Source of the DNA: an uncultured archaeon
Lineage (GTDB): Archaea; Asgardarchaeota; Thorarchaeia; Thorarchaeales; Thorarchaeaceae
Direction of reading: 5' to 3'
Length of the DNA stretch: 64,000 bases
Assembly (NCBI GenBank): GCA_964631415.1
Contig: CAZVZC010000006.1
Span: forward strand, 12,319 to 76,318
The notes under the pieces are model-generated. The model was given only the letters and a program-made list of their open reading frames with translations, had not been told where the DNA came from and did no database searches. This document shows positions 7,124 to 17,163 of the stretch, piece by piece. Position numbers and translations under genes: made by a program. Every line of letters starts with the position of its first letter. The stretch's first letter is position 1.

Positions 7124-8191
7124 GTGTGCAGTGAATTGGCGGAACTCCCATCTATTTCTTCACGAGAAAGGCTCGAGAAGTCACTAGGTATGCTGGGCTT
7201 TGCCCACGACAGACCGGCCCTCAGCGTTCTGCGGGCCATACTGAATGTACATTCCTCACTTCAGCGCCCTGTGGTTGCTCTTGAGATATATGACGGCCTT
7301 TTGCAGGCGGAACCTGGTGCACATCTCACCCGAACATGGGTGAGAAAGGTCTTGGAGGCTCTGGTCAATATGCGGATGGTAATGGTCGAGAGTGATACAG
7401 CACACGGGAAGAAGTACAGCGCAGACGCAAACACCATTGTGACAGGACTGGAGGATCTCAAGCACCAAACTCTGACGAGGTTAGAAACACGACGCAGGTT
7501 TCTCCAAGAGGAACTGTCGATGCTGTCTTCGGTCGACTTCAGCCACACGGCAAGGAGCCTCACGCACAGAACTGGGAACACCAAGGAGCAACCTCGATCG
7601 AGGCTTCTGAAGGGACTTGAGGCATACAGAGAAATAACCAACAGTGAAATATACGGCAGGGCAGGGGCTGGAAGCATCATAAGAGTTGCCAGACTCTGGC
7701 TTAGGCCGTTCATGAGTACCGTCGTAGAAGCGTTTGACGAGTTGTCAAGCGCCGTCGAGAGAGGGGCAGAGCTCCAGTTTTGCGTGACTCCCGACATCCT
7801 CACACAGGGCGATCTTCTTGCCACCGGTTTGCCGGAAACCAAGCTGGTAGAATCTTTTGCCAGAGTAGCCAAATTGAGGAAGGAGGGGGCAAGGATTGAT
7901 GTGAGGGTCTGTGGCCCCAATGCGAAAACGTACCACTTCTCCAGCTTGAATGACGAGAGTATGGTCATCTTGCTCTCTGAGGACCCGCTGGCAGCTACTT
8001 GGGTGAGCCGTAGCTTCAACCCCGACTTCGTCAAGAGTGCCATTGCGTCATTCGACCGTACATGGATACAGTCAGTTTCTCTCTTCGACTCCCCTCAGCG
8101 CCTGATTGAGAGGTTCCCCGGGAGTGAGTCAGGGTATCTCGTTTCGACGATGATTGGGAGTCAGAAGAGAATGGAAGGCAAGAAGGTGTGA
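7124..8191 (+). CDS. wHTH + TrmB/PLD-like effector domain protein, paralogue 1
   Basis: N-terminal winged helix (LTRTWVRKVLEALVNMRMV...KKYS), coiled coil, C-terminal TYHFSSLND...FNPDFVKSAIASFDRTW. Start may be TTG 7136. Confidence 0.7.
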   Translation: MCSELAELPSISSRERLEKSLGMLGFAHDRPALSVLRAILNVHSSLQRPVVALEIYDGLLQAEPGAHLTRTWVRKVLEALVNMRMVMVESDTAHGKKYSADANTIVTGLEDLKHQTLTRLETRRRFLQEELSMLSSVDFSHTARSLTHRTGNTKEQPRSRLLKGLEAYREITNSEIYGRAGAGSIIRVARLWLRPFMSTVVEAFDELSSAVERGAELQFCVTPDILTQGDLLATGLPETKLVESFARVAKLRKEGARIDVRVCGPNAKTYHFSSLNDESMVILLSEDPLAATWVSRSFNPDFVKSAIASFDRTWIQSVSLFDSPQRLIERFPGSESGYLVSTMIGSQKRMEGKKV

Positions 8192-9147
8192 TCATGGTCG
8201 ATGAGTCGGTGACCCGCGCTCTGAAGGCTCTTGGATTGATTCTGAGAACAGACAAGGACTCCCGCACGTTAGGACTGGTCAGAGCCGTGCTGGGAAGACA
8301 AAAGGAGCAAGGCGGCTCACTCAGCATTGACGAAATCCATGATGAGTTGAGGAGAGAAGAACCAGGGGTGAAACTCTCTAAGACGTTCGTGCAGAAAACA
8401 CTGAGGACCGCTGTTGAAGCTGGATTTGTAAGGGCGACAGGGCATGGCCCTCAGAGAACCCGCTATTCCTCCGACGCGTCGGCTGTGGAAACGGGACTAC
8501 ATAGGACTGCCGAATCTGCCAAGCGAAGGATACAGCAGGAAATCCGCCTCATCGATTCGGAGTCCGATGCGGCTGCGAGCTTGGACTGCACAACTCTGGC
8601 ACAGGACGTGGTGGTAGAGTTCACGGGCAGCAAGCAGAGAATAGGCTCCCGACTGGTCATTGGTGCAGAAGACATCCGGAGAGCAGTTGGATACAACATG
8701 AAGGACATGGCAGGCGAAGGGAGCATCATCCGGGTAGCTGTCATGTCGTCATCTCCATTCATCAATCAGAATGGGGAGGTGGTTCCAGAGATTGCCCACG
8801 CAGTGCTGAGAGACACGAACGTCCGATGCCTTGTATCCTCCAAGATTGTCGAGAGCCTGTTTCGGATTGATGGACGGCAGGACAATCGCGAAGATGCATT
8901 GGATTCCCCAGAATCCCCTAGAATGGCAGTTAGGGTCTACGACGGACCCATGACGTATCATCAGGTGACACTGAACAACGATTGCATGGCACTAATCGTG
9001 TCAGAGAAGCCACTGACGGCGGCTTGGATAACTAGACAGTTCAATCCCGACATCATCGACGCATCAGTTCTGAGCTTCGATGAATCGTGGAAAGAGGCTA
9101 GGGCATTGCACACACCCGGCATTAAGGGGGTGTCAGGTAGCTCATGA
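8188..9147 (+). CDS. wHTH + TrmB/PLD-like effector domain protein, paralogue 2
   Basis: LSKTFVQKTLRTAVEAGFV...RYS; TYHQVTLNN...FNPDIIDASVLSFDESW; GTGA overlap with the previous gene. Confidence 0.7.
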   Translation: MIMVDESVTRALKALGLILRTDKDSRTLGLVRAVLGRQKEQGGSLSIDEIHDELRREEPGVKLSKTFVQKTLRTAVEAGFVRATGHGPQRTRYSSDASAVETGLHRTAESAKRRIQQEIRLIDSESDAAASLDCTTLAQDVVVEFTGSKQRIGSRLVIGAEDIRRAVGYNMKDMAGEGSIIRVAVMSSSPFINQNGEVVPEIAHAVLRDTNVRCLVSSKIVESLFRIDGRQDNREDALDSPESPRMAVRVYDGPMTYHQVTLNNDCMALIVSEKPLTAAWITRQFNPDIIDASVLSFDESWKEARALHTPGIKGVSGSS

Positions 9148-10196
9148 TAGTTCGTGATTCAGTGTCAACGCGGAAGCCACACCCTGGGCGAAAGCCTGGC
9201 AGAGAAGGAAGTGCCGGGTCAGATCTCAAGATTGGGAAAACCCCGGAAGCACTCAGGCTCATCGGCTACGATCAGGAGATGCTCGACAGACAGTTTCAGG
9301 TCCTCAGGATCATCCTTCGGAAACAGCAAGAGCAAGGGGTTCCAGTTCCATTCAAGGACATAGAGAGTCAGATACGGGTAGAAGCCGACAACAGGAGCGT
9401 CGTTCGTCCCCAGATATATCGATGGCTAACGTCTTTGGAGAAGGATGGATATTTGAGTGTTGACAGGTTCTCTAGGCCCCACCGCTATTCTGCCTCTGTC
9501 GAAACCTTGGCAGCCGCTCTTAGTGAAGCTAGGACGAGGGCTCTGGTTTCCTTGGAACGGGAGAGAATGAGGCTTCTCTCAGATATCCAGAACCTATATG
9601 TCAACCGCGACCCAAGTGACAACGAGTCTGAAGCTCCAGACTTCTCGCGTCTTGCCGGTGATACAATCGAATTGATCACAGGAGTCCGCCAAAGGACCGT
9701 GGTCAGGTTCGCTGAAGGGCTGGAACAGATAAACAGACTGATTGATAGTGAGGTATACTCGACCGTCAGAAAGAGGGATGTCCTCAGACTCTCGATGGGC
9801 CAGAGGGGTATCGACTTGGTCACCGCAGAGCAGCATACGAAAGCTGTAAGCAGACTCGCCAATAAGGGGGCCATCTTCAGAGTATTACTGAGTAGTAACT
9901 TCGACACAAACGACAGGATTGGTCGCCTAGTTGTTGATACCTACAGGTCGCTGATCCAAGACAGCCTCGATGTTTCACTAAAGAGGCGTACGCGTTCGGA
10001 GGAAACATACCAGATGGTCGCAAGAAACAGCGACAGGGTGGTACTCAGGGTGTCAGATGAGCCAATCGCAGCCACCTTCATCCCGAGATTCATCAATCAG
10101 GAGCTAGTAGACGATGCCATTGCGAGCTTCGATGCGGAATTCGCCATAGCGACAGATGTCACGACCGGGACATCCGATTGGAGGACTAAAGCGTGA
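9144..10196 (+). CDS. wHTH + TrmB/PLD-like effector domain protein, paralogue 3
   Basis: RPQIYRWLTSLEKDGYL...RPHRYSA (TrmB-like HTH); TYQMVARNS...INQELVDDAIASFDAEF; ATGA overlap. Confidence 0.7.
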   Translation: MIVRDSVSTRKPHPGRKPGREGSAGSDLKIGKTPEALRLIGYDQEMLDRQFQVLRIILRKQQEQGVPVPFKDIESQIRVEADNRSVVRPQIYRWLTSLEKDGYLSVDRFSRPHRYSASVETLAAALSEARTRALVSLERERMRLLSDIQNLYVNRDPSDNESEAPDFSRLAGDTIELITGVRQRTVVRFAEGLEQINRLIDSEVYSTVRKRDVLRLSMGQRGIDLVTAEQHTKAVSRLANKGAIFRVLLSSNFDTNDRIGRLVVDTYRSLIQDSLDVSLKRRTRSEETYQMVARNSDRVVLRVSDEPIAATFIPRFINQELVDDAIASFDAEFAIATDVTTGTSDWRTKA

Positions 10197-11152
10197 GCAA
10201 AGCTGCGGCAGCACTCGATTTGATTGACATTCACCTCGACTCCAGCGAGATGGAGGTTCTCCGGTACTTGTTGAAAGCCTCACGAGGCCCGCAGAGAGTC
10301 ACCTTCACTACCGTATATGACCAAGTCAAAAAGGCAAAGGTCAGACCTCCAACGAGAGCCTGGGTGTATGAGTGCCTCAGAAAGCTGGAAACAGACGGTT
10401 TCATATCTGTCGACAAGCTGCCTCGACCTTGCTCCTACATCGTGAGCAGCGAAACAATCGCGAACGGTCTGGAGCGCGCTTGGAAGAGCAGACTGGATTC
10501 GATAGAGAGTGAGATCGGACTACTGACTCGGACTAGTGCAGAGGACTTGGCCGCCTTCCTGTACAAGTCTGCAAACGGCAGCCCAATGCAGCAGAACACG
10601 AATGTTGCCAGAGGGGTCGAGAACGTCAGAAGGCTCATCAGATCCGAACTGCTGGACAGGAAACAGTGGAAGGCAGGCGACGAACTGAAGCTCATTCACA
10701 GACTGGACAACCTGATTGGCGCGAAGGGTCCCAGTGGTCCTGTGGACAAAGAGATAGTTGCTGCTGCCATGGATGGCCTCAATGTGCGTGTAGTGTTCAT
10801 ATTCTCAGATATCGCACTTGATGGTTTAGGTGATGTTGCTTCATTCATGCGTGACGAGGGCAGCCAGCTTGCGAGTCTGCTCATGAGTGGGCGTCTACAG
10901 ATCAGACTGTATCCTGAAGATGTGGCAACATACAGAATCGTCGCCCTGAACAGAAGCAAATTGGTGATGTTACTGACGAATGCATTCAGGCCCGACGCGG
11001 CTGTACTACTAGACCAGGCCGAGCAACCGGTCATAGTTGAGCATGCGATGCAGAGGTTTGACACGCTTTGGAACCAGTCGATAGACGCCAGAGAGCTTAT
11101 GGCAGCCATGTTTGCAAAGTCTGGTAATCCCAATGCGGGCAGTACCGGCTAG
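10193..11152 (+). CDS. wHTH + TrmB/PLD-like effector domain protein, paralogue 4
   Basis: TRAWVYECLRKLETDGFI...RPCSY; TYRIVALNR...EQPVIVEHAMQRFDTLW; GTGA overlap. Confidence 0.7.
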   Translation: MSKAAAALDLIDIHLDSSEMEVLRYLLKASRGPQRVTFTTVYDQVKKAKVRPPTRAWVYECLRKLETDGFISVDKLPRPCSYIVSSETIANGLERAWKSRLDSIESEIGLLTRTSAEDLAAFLYKSANGSPMQQNTNVARGVENVRRLIRSELLDRKQWKAGDELKLIHRLDNLIGAKGPSGPVDKEIVAAAMDGLNVRVVFIFSDIALDGLGDVASFMRDEGSQLASLLMSGRLQIRLYPEDVATYRIVALNRSKLVMLLTNAFRPDAAVLLDQAEQPVIVEHAMQRFDTLWNQSIDARELMAAMFAKSGNPNAGSTG

Positions 11153-14231: not shown

Positions 14232-14857
14232 TTCATTTGGATAGACCATACAATGTGCTCATTGCAGGGGTAGGAGGACAAGGAAACCTACTATGCGGAA
14301 GGGTCCTGGCTGAGGCCGCCATCTCGGAGGGATACAGGCCCACTATTGGCGAAACCTTTGGAGCCTCGCGCAGGGGCGGAACAGTGGTCACACACGTGCG
14401 CCTTGGAAACCGAGACCTAGGCCCCCTGATTCCTCGTGGCACAGTCGATATGTTGATTGGTCTTGAACCGATGGAATCCCTTCGTGCGGCAGTGGACTAC
14501 TGTGAAGACCGCGCCGTCGCAGTTGTGAGTACTGCCGAAGTGCAAACAATGCAGTGCATAGCGGGAGCAACGAAGTACCCGTCGTTGGCAGGCATATTGG
14601 ATGTCATGTCCTCAATCTGTGCAAGCGTTTCCTCTGTAGATCCTGTTGCAGTCCTCGGTGAAACCGGGTACAGACGCGTCCTGAACTCCTTCATGTTGGG
14701 AGCGGCACTCGCCTCTGGCATAGCAACTCTCACGGCAAACCGTGTTAGAGATACGCTGACCGGGCTCATGCAACCTGTGGACCCCAATGTAGCTGCATTC
14801 GATGCAGGGCTCAAAGCCTCCGCCAAAGTGCGAGCCCGAGATCTCAGAGCACATTAG
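14228..14857 (+). CDS. iorB: Indolepyruvate:ferredoxin oxidoreductase beta subunit
   Basis: GVGGQG, GASRRGGTVVTHVR, LEPMESLR; coupled to iorA by a GTGA overlap. Confidence 0.9.
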   Translation: MIHLDRPYNVLIAGVGGQGNLLCGRVLAEAAISEGYRPTIGETFGASRRGGTVVTHVRLGNRDLGPLIPRGTVDMLIGLEPMESLRAAVDYCEDRAVAVVSTAEVQTMQCIAGATKYPSLAGILDVMSSICASVSSVDPVAVLGETGYRRVLNSFMLGAALASGIATLTANRVRDTLTGLMQPVDPNVAAFDAGLKASAKVRARDLRAH

Positions 14858-17163
14858 ACACCATGTTTCTTGGTGTCAGCGGTCTTCTTGGCCTCGTTCC
14901 ACATGAGCTCGGCCAGAATCGTGAACATGTCCGCCACACCCTCGCCTGTCTTTGCACTGCTTTCCATGTAGACAAAACCCTGTGACTCGGCCCATTGCTT
15001 GGCCTCTTCACTACTGACCGCCCTGTCGGGCAAGTCTATCTTGTTGCCCACGCATACCATGGGTACGCGGCCACCTATTGACTCATCCGACTCCTCTAGC
15101 CACTTGACTAGCTCGCTGAAGGAACGCCGGCGGGTGACATCGAACACCAGTATGACTCCTGCGGCTCCACTGTAGTACATCTTGCGTACTGCTTTGAAAC
15201 GAGCTTGGCCGGCAACATCCCACGCTTGTATCTTGATGCCTGTAGCGTATTGTGACTCTGGCGGCGAGATGTGCGTGAGCTTGACTGCGAACTGTGACCC
15301 TATCGTGGTCTTGTAGTCCTTCTCGAATTGACCAGTCGTGAATCTGTTGACGAGAGCCGTCTTTCCCACTGCACCCTCGCCTATCACCATGGTCTTGAAC
15401 AGGTAGCTGTATGAGTCTGAGGGTGTACCGGGCTTAGGGGCCTTGGGTTTCCGTGCACGGATCTCGGCTACAATGGCGCTCTCGACTGACACAACCGCTC
15501 GTGCAGGGACCTCCACAGCAGGCTCCTCTTCCTCAGGGAGCTCGGCCAGTGCAGCAACGTCTATGCTAGTCACTTCGGTCGTTTCGCTGAAGAGCCTGTC
15601 GAGCAGTTTCTCTGCCTCACGCAATGACGCCGCTGTGCCTTCTGTCATCTCCGGTTCTTCATCGGGCGATGTGATTGTTTCTTCCGTTGAAACCCTGCCA
15701 AAGCCCGTGCCGACAGTTTCTCCAAAGAGTGTGCCTGTTTCCTCCTCAGGAACTTCGGCCTCTTTTTGTGGGGTAAGCACAACAGGGGCTACGGCTGATG
15801 CTGCTGCCGTCACGGATCCCTTCTCAACCATTACCGCGGTTTCAGGAGTGGTTACCTGCCGCACCCGGCCGTCGGAATCTGTCCACATGAGCACTATCGG
15901 TCTCACGATTACCGAGCCCTCGGCCTTTGGCATTAGCTGAAGCTCAACAGTCTTAGTTTCAAAGGGTCCGAGGTCGAAGCGCACCTGTTGCGGAGTTACA
16001 TCCATGTCCGCCTTGGGAAACCAGTAGACCTTCCCACTAACACTACTGACAGGCTTGTCTGTCACGTTGGTCAGTGTGACGCGACCTGCCAACCCAGTAC
16101 CAGTTTTTGCCTGAGGACTCACTTCGAACTTGGGTATGACCGTATACAATCCTTGGATGACCTTGAGTGGACCATTGGATATACCGACGAGAACCTCCTT
16201 CCTTCCGTCGCCTCCCGCATCTCCGGCACTGATAGTGAGTATCTTGGTCCCAATGTCTACCTTTGCTATCTGTTGCAGTTCAGCTGCCTGGATATTGTAG
16301 AAGACAACATTGGCGTCGGAGGTGGCGACTACGGCCTCATCCATATGGTCGGCATTCAGCTCCTCAATCCTCAGAGAGAGAGCTTTGACTTTGTCCAGCA
16401 TCGTGAATAGCTCGAGATGGCTCTCTTCGTTGCGATATACTCGTATTGACCCGTCGTAGGTCACGACGCCCAGTTCCATCTTGCGATCTCCGAGCAGATC
16501 ACCAGAGGCGACAGAAACTACAGGGCTCGGCAGGTTGAGTACCTCCATCTGCTCGATTGTATGATCCTTCACTTTGAAGACTCTGACCGTCTTGTCTCTG
16601 TTGCCCGTGACGATTTCATCTATCTCATCACCATCGACGTCGCATGTCCCTATCGTTATGGGCATGTCATCGAGCCGATAGCGCGCATACTCTGACAGGT
16701 TGTTCAAAGTATCCATCTCAAATACCCTGAGAGTTGAGTCGCTGCCACCCACCATGATCTCATTCTTGTCGTCACCAGTCACATCAGTGACTCTGACGGT
16801 CGTCACGAATCGGTCGACAGGATGTTCTGCCAATAGCTCGAGACTCCCGCTGGATGAGAACCTGTAGACCTGCAGGGTACCAGCAATCCCCGCTACATCC
16901 CGGGGACCTATGCTCCGGCCGACCACTATTTCGTTCTGTCCATCGTTATTGGCGTCAGCAATCTCAATAGATAGAATGCTTCCTTCGACGTCAAGTTGAG
17001 CCAGAAACTGAATCTCGCTCTTGTTAGCATCATAGACACGCAGCACTCCGTCACGCCCACCTGTACAGAGCTCGGACTTCCCCGTACCTACAACATCACC
17101 TACGGCGATTGCACTGGTGCTCTTGTCTTCCTTTATCTCGAAGAGAACTCTTGGTGAATCCAA
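14854..17163 (-). CDS. FG-GAP beta-propeller + Ig-like domain + acidic linker + Rab-like small GTPase fusion protein
   Basis: Seven DxxGDGxxE-type blades (GDVVGTGKSE, ADANNDGQNE, DVTGDDKNE, DVDGDEIDE, GDLLGDRKME, ELNADHMDE, GDAGGDGRKE); C-terminal GEGAVGKT, TIG, WDVAGQ, NKID, ESSAK. Confidence 0.9.
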   Translation of the reverse strand: MDSPRVLFEIKEDKSTSAIAVGDVVGTGKSELCTGGRDGVLRVYDANKSEIQFLAQLDVEGSILSIEIADANNDGQNEIVVGRSIGPRDVAGIAGTLQVYRFSSSGSLELLAEHPVDRFVTTVRVTDVTGDDKNEIMVGGSDSTLRVFEMDTLNNLSEYARYRLDDMPITIGTCDVDGDEIDEIVTGNRDKTVRVFKVKDHTIEQMEVLNLPSPVVSVASGDLLGDRKMELGVVTYDGSIRVYRNEESHLELFTMLDKVKALSLRIEELNADHMDEAVVATSDANVVFYNIQAAELQQIAKVDIGTKILTISAGDAGGDGRKEVLVGISNGPLKVIQGLYTVIPKFEVSPQAKTGTGLAGRVTLTNVTDKPVSSVSGKVYWFPKADMDVTPQQVRFDLGPFETKTVELQLMPKAEGSVIVRPIVLMWTDSDGRVRQVTTPETAVMVEKGSVTAAASAVAPVVLTPQKEAEVPEEETGTLFGETVGTGFGRVSTEETITSPDEEPEMTEGTAASLREAEKLLDRLFSETTEVTSIDVAALAELPEEEEPAVEVPARAVVSVESAIVAEIRARKPKAPKPGTPSDSYSYLFKTMVIGEGAVGKTALVNRFTTGQFEKDYKTTIGSQFAVKLTHISPPESQYATGIKIQAWDVAGQARFKAVRKMYYSGAAGVILVFDVTRRRSFSELVKWLEESDESIGGRVPMVCVGNKIDLPDRAVSSEEAKQWAESQGFVYMESSAKTGEGVADMFTILAELMWNEAKKTADTKKHGV

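Follow-up and report, generated by a model that had tools for sequence, protein, structure and literature searches.

A Rab-like small GTPase fused to a beta-propeller and an Ig-like domain in one order of Asgard archaea

What might a Rab-like GTPase act on in an Asgard archaeon? Many Rab-like GTPases are encoded by these archaea, and to our knowledge an effector or cellular role is known for none of them. The question is raised anew by a gene in a 64,000-nucleotide stretch of DNA from an uncultured archaeon of the family Thorarchaeaceae (GenBank assembly GCA_964631415.1, contig CAZVZC010000006.1, positions 12,319 to 76,318 of the forward strand), which we refer to as the window. The gene occupies window positions 14854..17163 on the minus strand and encodes a protein of 769 amino acids (aa) in which a beta-propeller, an Ig-like domain, a linker and a Rab-like small GTPase follow one another in a single open frame shared with its orthologues. 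An earlier note on this DNA had described the arrangement as a coat- or BBSome-like module fused to a Rab GTPase. We find that the fusion is a genuine gene and that, among the genomes sampled, it is confined to the order of Asgard archaea from which the window comes. Its product is most likely a cytoplasmic multidomain "large Rab", that is, a scaffold into which a GTP switch is built; we hold this reading with moderate confidence.

The open frame that the earlier note had placed at 14854-17163, giving no strand, lies on the minus strand. The plus strand of this interval is riddled with stop codons, and the reverse strand is one open frame of 769 aa that runs from a TTG start codon at 17163 to a stop codon at 14854-14856. 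A GGAAGG-type ribosome-binding site is found approximately 10 nucleotides upstream of the TTG codon, and since the protein aligns with the N-termini of its orthologues from residue 1 onward, we take this start to be correct. In a protein-cluster search, we observed more than 120 clusters of full-length orthologues (740-826 aa, 63-100% identity, approximately 100% coverage) that carry the source name Thorarchaeota "GTP-binding protein". The genome to which the window belongs is an incomplete assembly of 81 contigs, and an assembly chimera was the danger that the earlier note had raised. That the fusion is such an artefact, or two neighboring genes read as one, is nevertheless extremely improbable. 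The same uninterrupted frame occurs in dozens of independent assemblies, including two single-contig genomes (G236 and G242) and a contig of 3.16 Mb, the guanine-plus-cytosine content is even along the gene (0.52-0.56), and the shorter frames that resemble standalone genes are truncated pieces located on short contigs or at the end of a contig. The chimera was thus rejected on the strength of the orthologue clusters and of stop-free full-length matches across the window's family.

For the distribution of the fusion we surveyed 301 Asgard genomes, 76 of them from the window's own family and one from a sister family of the same order; by database names, the window's order and family are Thorarchaeota. 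Almost every one of the 76 genomes from the window's family has a full-length, stop-free match; the others show pieces of the gene at the ends of contigs or, in the case of four incomplete genomes, a standalone Rab alone. All 57 genomes of this family that are at least 85% complete contain a match to the N-terminal part of the protein. The sister-family genome (G112) encodes the fusion at 46% identity, divided between two contig ends, and a 781-aa representative with 41% identity has the same propeller-plus-Ras architecture. Outside the window's order, no full-length fusion was found among the approximately 300 Asgard genomes sampled: the full-length query yielded only matches to the GTPase domain (1e-25 to 1e-48), and the N-terminal query only weak propeller matches (1e-9 to 1e-19, 23-33% identity). 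Throughout the genomes surveyed, the open frame around an N-terminal match that is not cut by a contig end is always 757 aa or longer, so that no unfused form of the N-terminal module was seen. The survey, which the earlier note had proposed, thus shows a fusion that, among the genomes sampled, is conserved in one order only.

The GTPase domain spans aa 580-755 (window 14899..15426, minus strand). Pfam Ras matches aa 590-753 with 157.5 bits (cutoff 21.6), compared with only 49.5 bits for Pfam Arf; NCBIfam assigns only its generic small_GTP domain, and the PADLOC defence models give no match. The G1 motif GEGAVGKT (aa 595-602), the switch-I threonine in YKTTIG (617-622), the G3 motif DVAGQ with its catalytic glutamine (649-653), the G4 motif NKID (707-710) and the G5 motif SSAK (735-738) are found at the expected spacing. 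The five strings that the earlier note had quoted as RabF-like (IGSQF, KIQAW, RFKAVR, YYSGA and LVFDVT) likewise stand at the expected positions, and they differ from what we take to be the eukaryotic RabF consensus (IGVDF, KLQIW, RFrsiT, YYRGA, LVYDIT). The best solved relative is Thor-Rab (7EZB; 3.6e-44), followed by Rab14, Rab30, Rab2 and Rab11, and all 60 of the PDB matches listed belong to the Rab family, including yeast YPT1 and SEC4. Among orthologues, the mean column identity of this domain is 86%.

The standalone relatives of this domain point to its origin. Apparent standalone matches with more than 69% identity come from fragments located on short contigs; the genuine standalone relatives form a family of 182-aa Thorarchaeota Rabs with 52-60% identity. 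Among the approximately 10 small GTPases encoded by the window's genome is one standalone Thor-Rab copy, in which IGSQF, WDVAGQ and DVTRRR recur and a terminal cysteine is likewise missing. Since the Rab-like motifs are common to standalone Thor-Rab, they characterize the Thor-Rab family as a whole rather than the fusion in particular. A quick maximum-likelihood tree, built without eukaryotic Rabs, places the fused GTPase domains in a single clade (98 in the Shimodaira-Hasegawa-like approximate likelihood ratio test) and sets them apart from the standalone proteins; how the two clades branch is not resolved by this tree. The picture agrees with one event of duplication and fusion: the fused domain is a paralogue of the standalone protein, and the fusion has a single origin. 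For Thor-Rab, Tran et al. (2024, PMC10933270) describe an assay of GTPase activity by phosphate release.

The part of the protein that precedes the GTPase was modeled with AlphaFold2 from an alignment of 43 sequences. Residues 1-460 are predicted to form one unit with a mean predicted local distance difference test (pLDDT) score of 91.6 and a predicted template modeling (TM) score of 0.86. In the model, 28 strands make up seven four-stranded blades that extend to residue 336, and these are followed by a beta-sandwich at 342-447. We therefore describe aa 1-340 (16144..17163, minus strand) as a seven-bladed propeller of the FG-GAP class and aa 342-447 (15823..16140, minus strand) as an Ig-like sandwich that packs against it and that, when folded alone, reaches a pLDDT of 91.0. 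Residues 1-447 are all-beta, and the model has no helix of four or more residues. In Pfam, the N-terminal unit is matched by FG-GAP_3 (71 bits), BBS2_Mid (58.8), Beta-prop_BBS7 (58.7), Itfg2 (40.2) and PHTB1_N (30.7), all of which, like the Ras match, exceed their curated cutoffs. The seven FG-GAP-like blades that the earlier note had counted in this region, and its order of propeller, Ig sandwich, acidic and proline-containing linker and GTPase, are reproduced by these results; for the linker it had claimed approximately 135 aa, and we measured 132.

Each blade of the propeller carries a loop of the D-x-x-G-D-x-x-x-E type. Those of blades 2 and 4 (DANNDGQNE at aa 70-78, window 16930-16956, and DVDGDEIDE at aa 175-183, window 16615-16641) fit the integrin-type DxDxDGxxD/E pattern, and their metal-pattern residues are invariant among orthologues. 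These invariant loops hint at a bound calcium or magnesium ion in a cytoplasmic propeller.

Prokaryotic FG-GAP and VCBS proteins are usually surface or secreted proteins, and the question arises whether this one is an adhesin of the FG-GAP and CARDB type. FG-GAP_3 is indeed the strongest Pfam match of the protein apart from that of the GTPase, its nearest non-orthologous propellers include secreted giants, and CARDB and macroglobulin (MG) domains are among the structural matches of the Ig domain. However, the hydropathy of the first 60 residues reveals no signal peptide or membrane helix, the highest 19-residue Kyte-Doolittle mean being 0.63, versus 2.2-2.6 in secreted relatives, and the propeller is in frame with an intact, highly conserved GTPase that requires cytoplasmic nucleotide. 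On these grounds the adhesin reading was rejected, and we regard it as very improbable. The absence of a signal peptide, of a membrane helix and of a C-terminal cysteine indicates that the protein is cytoplasmic and unlipidated; a cytoplasmic location, as the earlier note had supposed, also follows from the need of the GTPase for cytoplasmic GTP.

Between the Ig-like domain and the GTPase lies an acidic linker rich in alanine, threonine and proline (aa 448-579, 132 aa; window 15427..15822, minus strand), which contains 27 acidic residues (Asp or Glu), 12 basic residues (Lys or Arg) and 11 prolines and which is matched by no Pfam family. The confidence of the model collapses from residue 451 (pLDDT 34 for aa 451-460), so that the linker is predicted to be disordered where it was modeled. 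Its length and sequence vary among orthologues, with the exception of three conserved motifs. The first is a Phe/Gly motif, FGETVGTGFG (aa 480-489, window 15697..15726, minus strand; consensus FGPVVGTGFG), in which F480, T486 and G487 show at least 90% conservation within the window's family and which is missing from the 41%-identical relative P0124. The second is an amphipathic, helix-like motif, SLREAEKLLDRLFS (aa 513-526, window 15586..15627, minus strand; consensus SLKAAEELLDQLFG), in which E518 is invariant and L514, A517, L520, L521, D522, L524, F525 and G526 are at least 90% conserved. The third is a basic, proline-rich lead-in to the GTPase (aa 561-590, window 15394..15483, minus strand; ES..V.EIR.R.PKPPRPG...DSY.YLFK), which is retained even in P0124, the most distant relative. 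Beyond the GTPase, the protein ends in a lysine-rich tail without cysteine (aa 756-769, window 14857..14898, minus strand). Its C-terminus, KKHGV, contains no geranylgeranylation motif, as had been noticed before. A cysteine occurs within the last 12 residues in one of 120 orthologues and within the last 8 residues in none of 108 standalone Thor-Rabs.

The most far-reaching proposal for the N-terminal unit is that it is a true homologue, in proto-form, of the propeller and gamma-adaptin-ear (GAE) domains of the BBSome and of coats, and hence a Rosetta stone for a Rab-controlled coat in the archaeal ancestor of eukaryotes. When the PDB was searched with Foldseek, the nine best matches were BBS2 (3.1e-19), BBS9, BBS7 and BBS1, down to 7e-14, followed by ITFG2 of KICSTOR (9e-14, root-mean-square deviation 4.3 A), integrin alpha chains (2e-13) and CRTAC1. 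Generic extracellular domains, which the earlier note had considered as possible best hits, therefore do not lead the matches of the propeller. BBS7 (6.7e-4) and BBS2 (0.02) are also among the few PDB matches of a sequence profile of the family, and a 2026 preprint mentions in passing a structural cluster, confined to Asgard archaea and eukaryotes, that is labelled BBS7/ITFG2. By structural Z scores, BBS2 and ITFG2 lead; however, unrelated WD40 propellers trail them by only 2-3 units.

The specificity of these matches was assessed with proteins of the same repeat class. Seven generic FG-GAP proteins, two of which bear N-terminal signal or anchor sequences, pass the Pfam cutoffs for BBS2_Mid, BBS7 and Itfg2 with scores that equal or exceed those of the fusion protein. 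A secreted Asgard control propeller reaches 35 bits against BBS2 and 30 bits (1.9e-6) against ITFG2, compared with 21 and 25 bits for the fusion protein. A second secreted control gave a weak match to integrin alpha-V only, and since the two controls disagree, the picture of specificity is mixed rather than uniform. Against 1.8 billion representatives, the nearest propeller relatives that are not orthologues are long prokaryotic FG-GAP repeat proteins (110-163 bits), far closer than ITFG2 and the BBS proteins, whose profile scores are 17-37 bits.

The remaining domains argue in the same direction. The Ig domain is a sandwich of a common type: in Foldseek, it matches TRAP-beta first (7.8e-6, TM score 0.81), complement MG domains next, BBS9 at rank 10 and then CARDB, and it is no closer to the GAE domain of BBS1 than to macroglobulin, CARDB and TRAP-beta domains. 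The coiled-coil, platform and helical domains of BBS2, BBS7 and BBS9 were not found in the model of aa 1-460 or, by Pfam family, in the linker; the alpha-solenoid of protocoatomer-type coats was not found either, aa 1-447 being all-beta and the linker leading directly to the GTPase. The fused GTPase is Rab-like, whereas ARL6, the recruiter of the BBSome, is Arf-like, and the fusion is confined to the window's own order among the genomes sampled. Taken together, these observations make descent from a common propeller-GAE ancestor unlikely. The likeness to coats and the BBSome reads as an analogy of architecture, and homology beyond the repeat class is not established. Of the earlier view of a BBS-like module, the structural resemblance of the propeller stands; the claim of homology and ancestry is not supported, as generic FG-GAP proteins score alike.

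Independent support for a functional link between such propellers and small GTPases could come from genes that are still separate. We examined approximately 14 kb around eight unfused Asgard propellers, namely a 334-aa one of the window's genome and forms of approximately 340-383 aa and of 556-607 aa from other Asgard families. No open reading frame of the Ras family was found within approximately 6-7 kb of any of the eight. This speaks against homology with the BBSome and leaves the Rosetta-stone inference of the earlier note without independent support.

A different possibility is that ITFG2 has its archaeal counterpart in this propeller, the whole protein being a nutrient-signaling scaffold for GTPases rather than a coat. 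ITFG2 acts with KPTN, SZT2 and KICS2 upstream of the Rag GTPases. Among solved proteins it is the best sequence match, both with the family profile (1.1e-8) and with the single sequence (7.6e-5), the latter alignment being collinear from the N-terminus (aa 5-159 versus ITFG2 9-166), and it gives the longest structural alignment with the N-terminal unit. It is also the only significant PDB match of the one member searched from an unfused cytoplasmic propeller family, probably of Lokiarchaeia. Nevertheless, we consider this counterpart quite improbable, because the secreted control also reaches a score of 30 bits against ITFG2, the fused GTPase is Rab-like and not Rag-like, and ITFG2 has no Ig domain after its propeller.

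The unfused propellers deserve a description of their own. The second propeller of the window's genome, a standalone protein of 334 aa (C46:4841-5845, minus strand, which is L013:542-1546), matches Beta-prop_BBS7 with 38 bits, is approximately 25% identical to the propeller of the fusion protein and appears to be cytoplasmic; open frames of approximately 340 aa that match it are present in many genomes of the window's family. A family of approximately 556-563 aa, probably from Lokiarchaeia, is represented by L014:807-2477 (plus strand) and L017:52-1731 (minus strand), as well as in L015 and L019. Its members lack an N-terminal signal sequence, have Beta-prop_BBS7 as their best Pfam match (70-90 bits), contain approximately 220 C-terminal residues that match no family, and have no GTPase gene within approximately 6 kb. 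For the one member searched (L017), ITFG2 was the only significant PDB sequence match (5.9e-7). This family may be the BBS7/ITFG2 cluster of the preprint, whose label, judged by Pfam, applies to these unfused Lokiarchaeial proteins no less well than to the fusion.

How, then, might the parts of the fusion protein work together? The rigid propeller-Ig unit is a putative protein-binding platform, since propellers of the same class serve as interaction platforms in BBS1, BBS2, BBS7, BBS9 and ITFG2, its best structural matches, and the Rab domain, tethered to it by the flexible linker, is the putative built-in GTP/GDP switch of that platform. In one option, one nucleotide state would fold the Rab domain back onto the platform or onto the linker helix at aa 513-526, an autoinhibited arrangement for which the conserved helix is an obvious candidate site of nucleotide-dependent docking in cis. 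In a second option, the Rab domain would carry the platform and its clients to a site that recognizes the active Rab and would thus replace the missing lipid anchor. Strong purifying selection acts on every part of the protein, the three linker motifs included. The protein could be viewed, by analogy, as a one-chain counterpart of a Rab and its effector, or of ARL6 and BBS1, sharing a working principle with them, descent not being established.

The surroundings of the gene are in keeping with this. Its neighbors are iorA and iorB, which are convergent with it, and an ABC transporter gene, which is divergent; this placement is kept in all 11 of the related loci that we compared, and none of these neighbors is co-oriented with the fusion gene. 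The gene thus has no operon partner, which fits a self-contained module.

Two points weigh against the scaffold-and-switch reading. The chain carries neither a lipid anchor nor a membrane helix, and the conserved synteny may simply reflect how closely related the compared genomes are. A complex prediction for aa 1-450 with the GTPase domain, GTP and Mg gave a score of 0.00; it was made without controls and carries no weight either way. It is also conceivable, though unlikely, that the propeller-Ig unit is a true archaeal relative of ITFG2 and of the BBS propeller-GAE unit, and that the protein is a single-chain GTP-gated adaptor or proto-coat, in which the GTP-bound Rab domain would release or position the platform to gather clients at a membrane or cytoskeletal site. 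Of these readings, the large Rab with a scaffold and a built-in switch is the one that we favor.

Two further observations concern the vicinity of the gene. The stop codons of iorB (plus strand, gene end 14857) and of the fusion gene (minus strand, gene end 14854) overlap by four bases at window 14854-14857, leaving the two convergent genes without any intervening sequence in which a terminator could lie. Elsewhere in the window, at 7124-11152, four genes follow one another in tandem, the start and stop codons of neighbors overlapping; their products, of approximately 320-355 aa, are similar to one another in outline and have winged-helix-like N-termini.

A literature search for BBSome, ITFG2, FG-GAP and Rab proteins in Asgard archaea returned no published description of a propeller-Ig-Rab fusion. 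In the survey of Tran et al. (2024, PMC10933270), GTPases occur either by themselves or in combination with roadblock or longin domains, and propellers, WD40 and BBS are absent from the text; the text of a catalogue paper in Nature Microbiology is likewise silent on BBS, ITFG2 and propellers. The protein adds to the Rab-like small GTPases one whose partner domains we did not find described in the literature. In it, a Rab paralogue and a candidate effector platform are permanently united in one chain, which makes the target of an archaeal Rab switch directly testable. If the platform is related to the propellers of ITFG2 and the BBS proteins, the fusion would bear on the origin of GTPase-controlled adaptors; if it is unrelated to them, it would be a clear convergent design of a switch plus a propeller. 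Should the proto-coat view be true, the protein would let us see, in a living organism, how a small GTPase and a coat-type effector were arranged before their genes separated. Since the fusion is limited to one order, its bearing on the direct ancestor of eukaryotes is limited.

Comparison with known systems places the protein among several partial counterparts. The best solved match of its GTPase domain is Thor-Rab (7EZB, 7EZD and 7EZE), of which the fused GTPase is a paralogue in a separate clade and to which the fusion adds approximately 580 N-terminal residues. BBS1, BBS2, BBS7 and BBS9 (PDB 6VBU, 6VOA, 6XT9 and 4V0M-type entries) share with the fusion protein the order of a seven-bladed propeller, made of repeats of the same class, and an Ig-like domain, which in their case is the GAE domain, and a small GTPase works with the propeller, ARL6 binding BBS1 according to PDB entry titles. 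They differ in that ARL6 is Arf-like and separate, whereas the GTPase of the fusion is Rab-like and covalently tethered, and in sequence the fusion resembles BBS proteins no more closely than a secreted control propeller does. ITFG2 (PDB 9V6E and 9O5A) shares with it a cytoplasmic propeller of the FG-GAP class with the repeated GD.D.D...EL.VG...G.L.V motif; unlike the fusion protein, it has neither an Ig domain nor a GTPase, and the score of the match between the two is unspecific, as the secreted control reveals. The integrin alpha headpiece has the same order of FG-GAP propeller and Ig domain (the thigh), with a Foldseek match of 2e-13 over approximately 600 columns, but it is extracellular, has no GTPase, and no integrin appeared in the sequence searches of the PDB, by family profile or by single sequence, at E values up to 1.

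The arrangement of a switch within a larger protein has parallels among eukaryotic proteins. In the large Rabs CRACR2A, Rab44 and Rab45/RASEF, the Rab domain is C-terminal, follows interaction domains and is prenylated, the partner domains being EF-hand and coiled-coil domains. In ROCO proteins, the partners are COR and kinase domains, and LRRK2, a member of this group, pairs its Roc GTPase with a WD40 propeller. In all of these, as in the fusion protein, a switch of the Ras superfamily resides inside a long multidomain protein. Their partner domains are different, no homology beyond the GTPase is implied, and the archaeal protein, unlike the large Rabs, carries no prenylation site.

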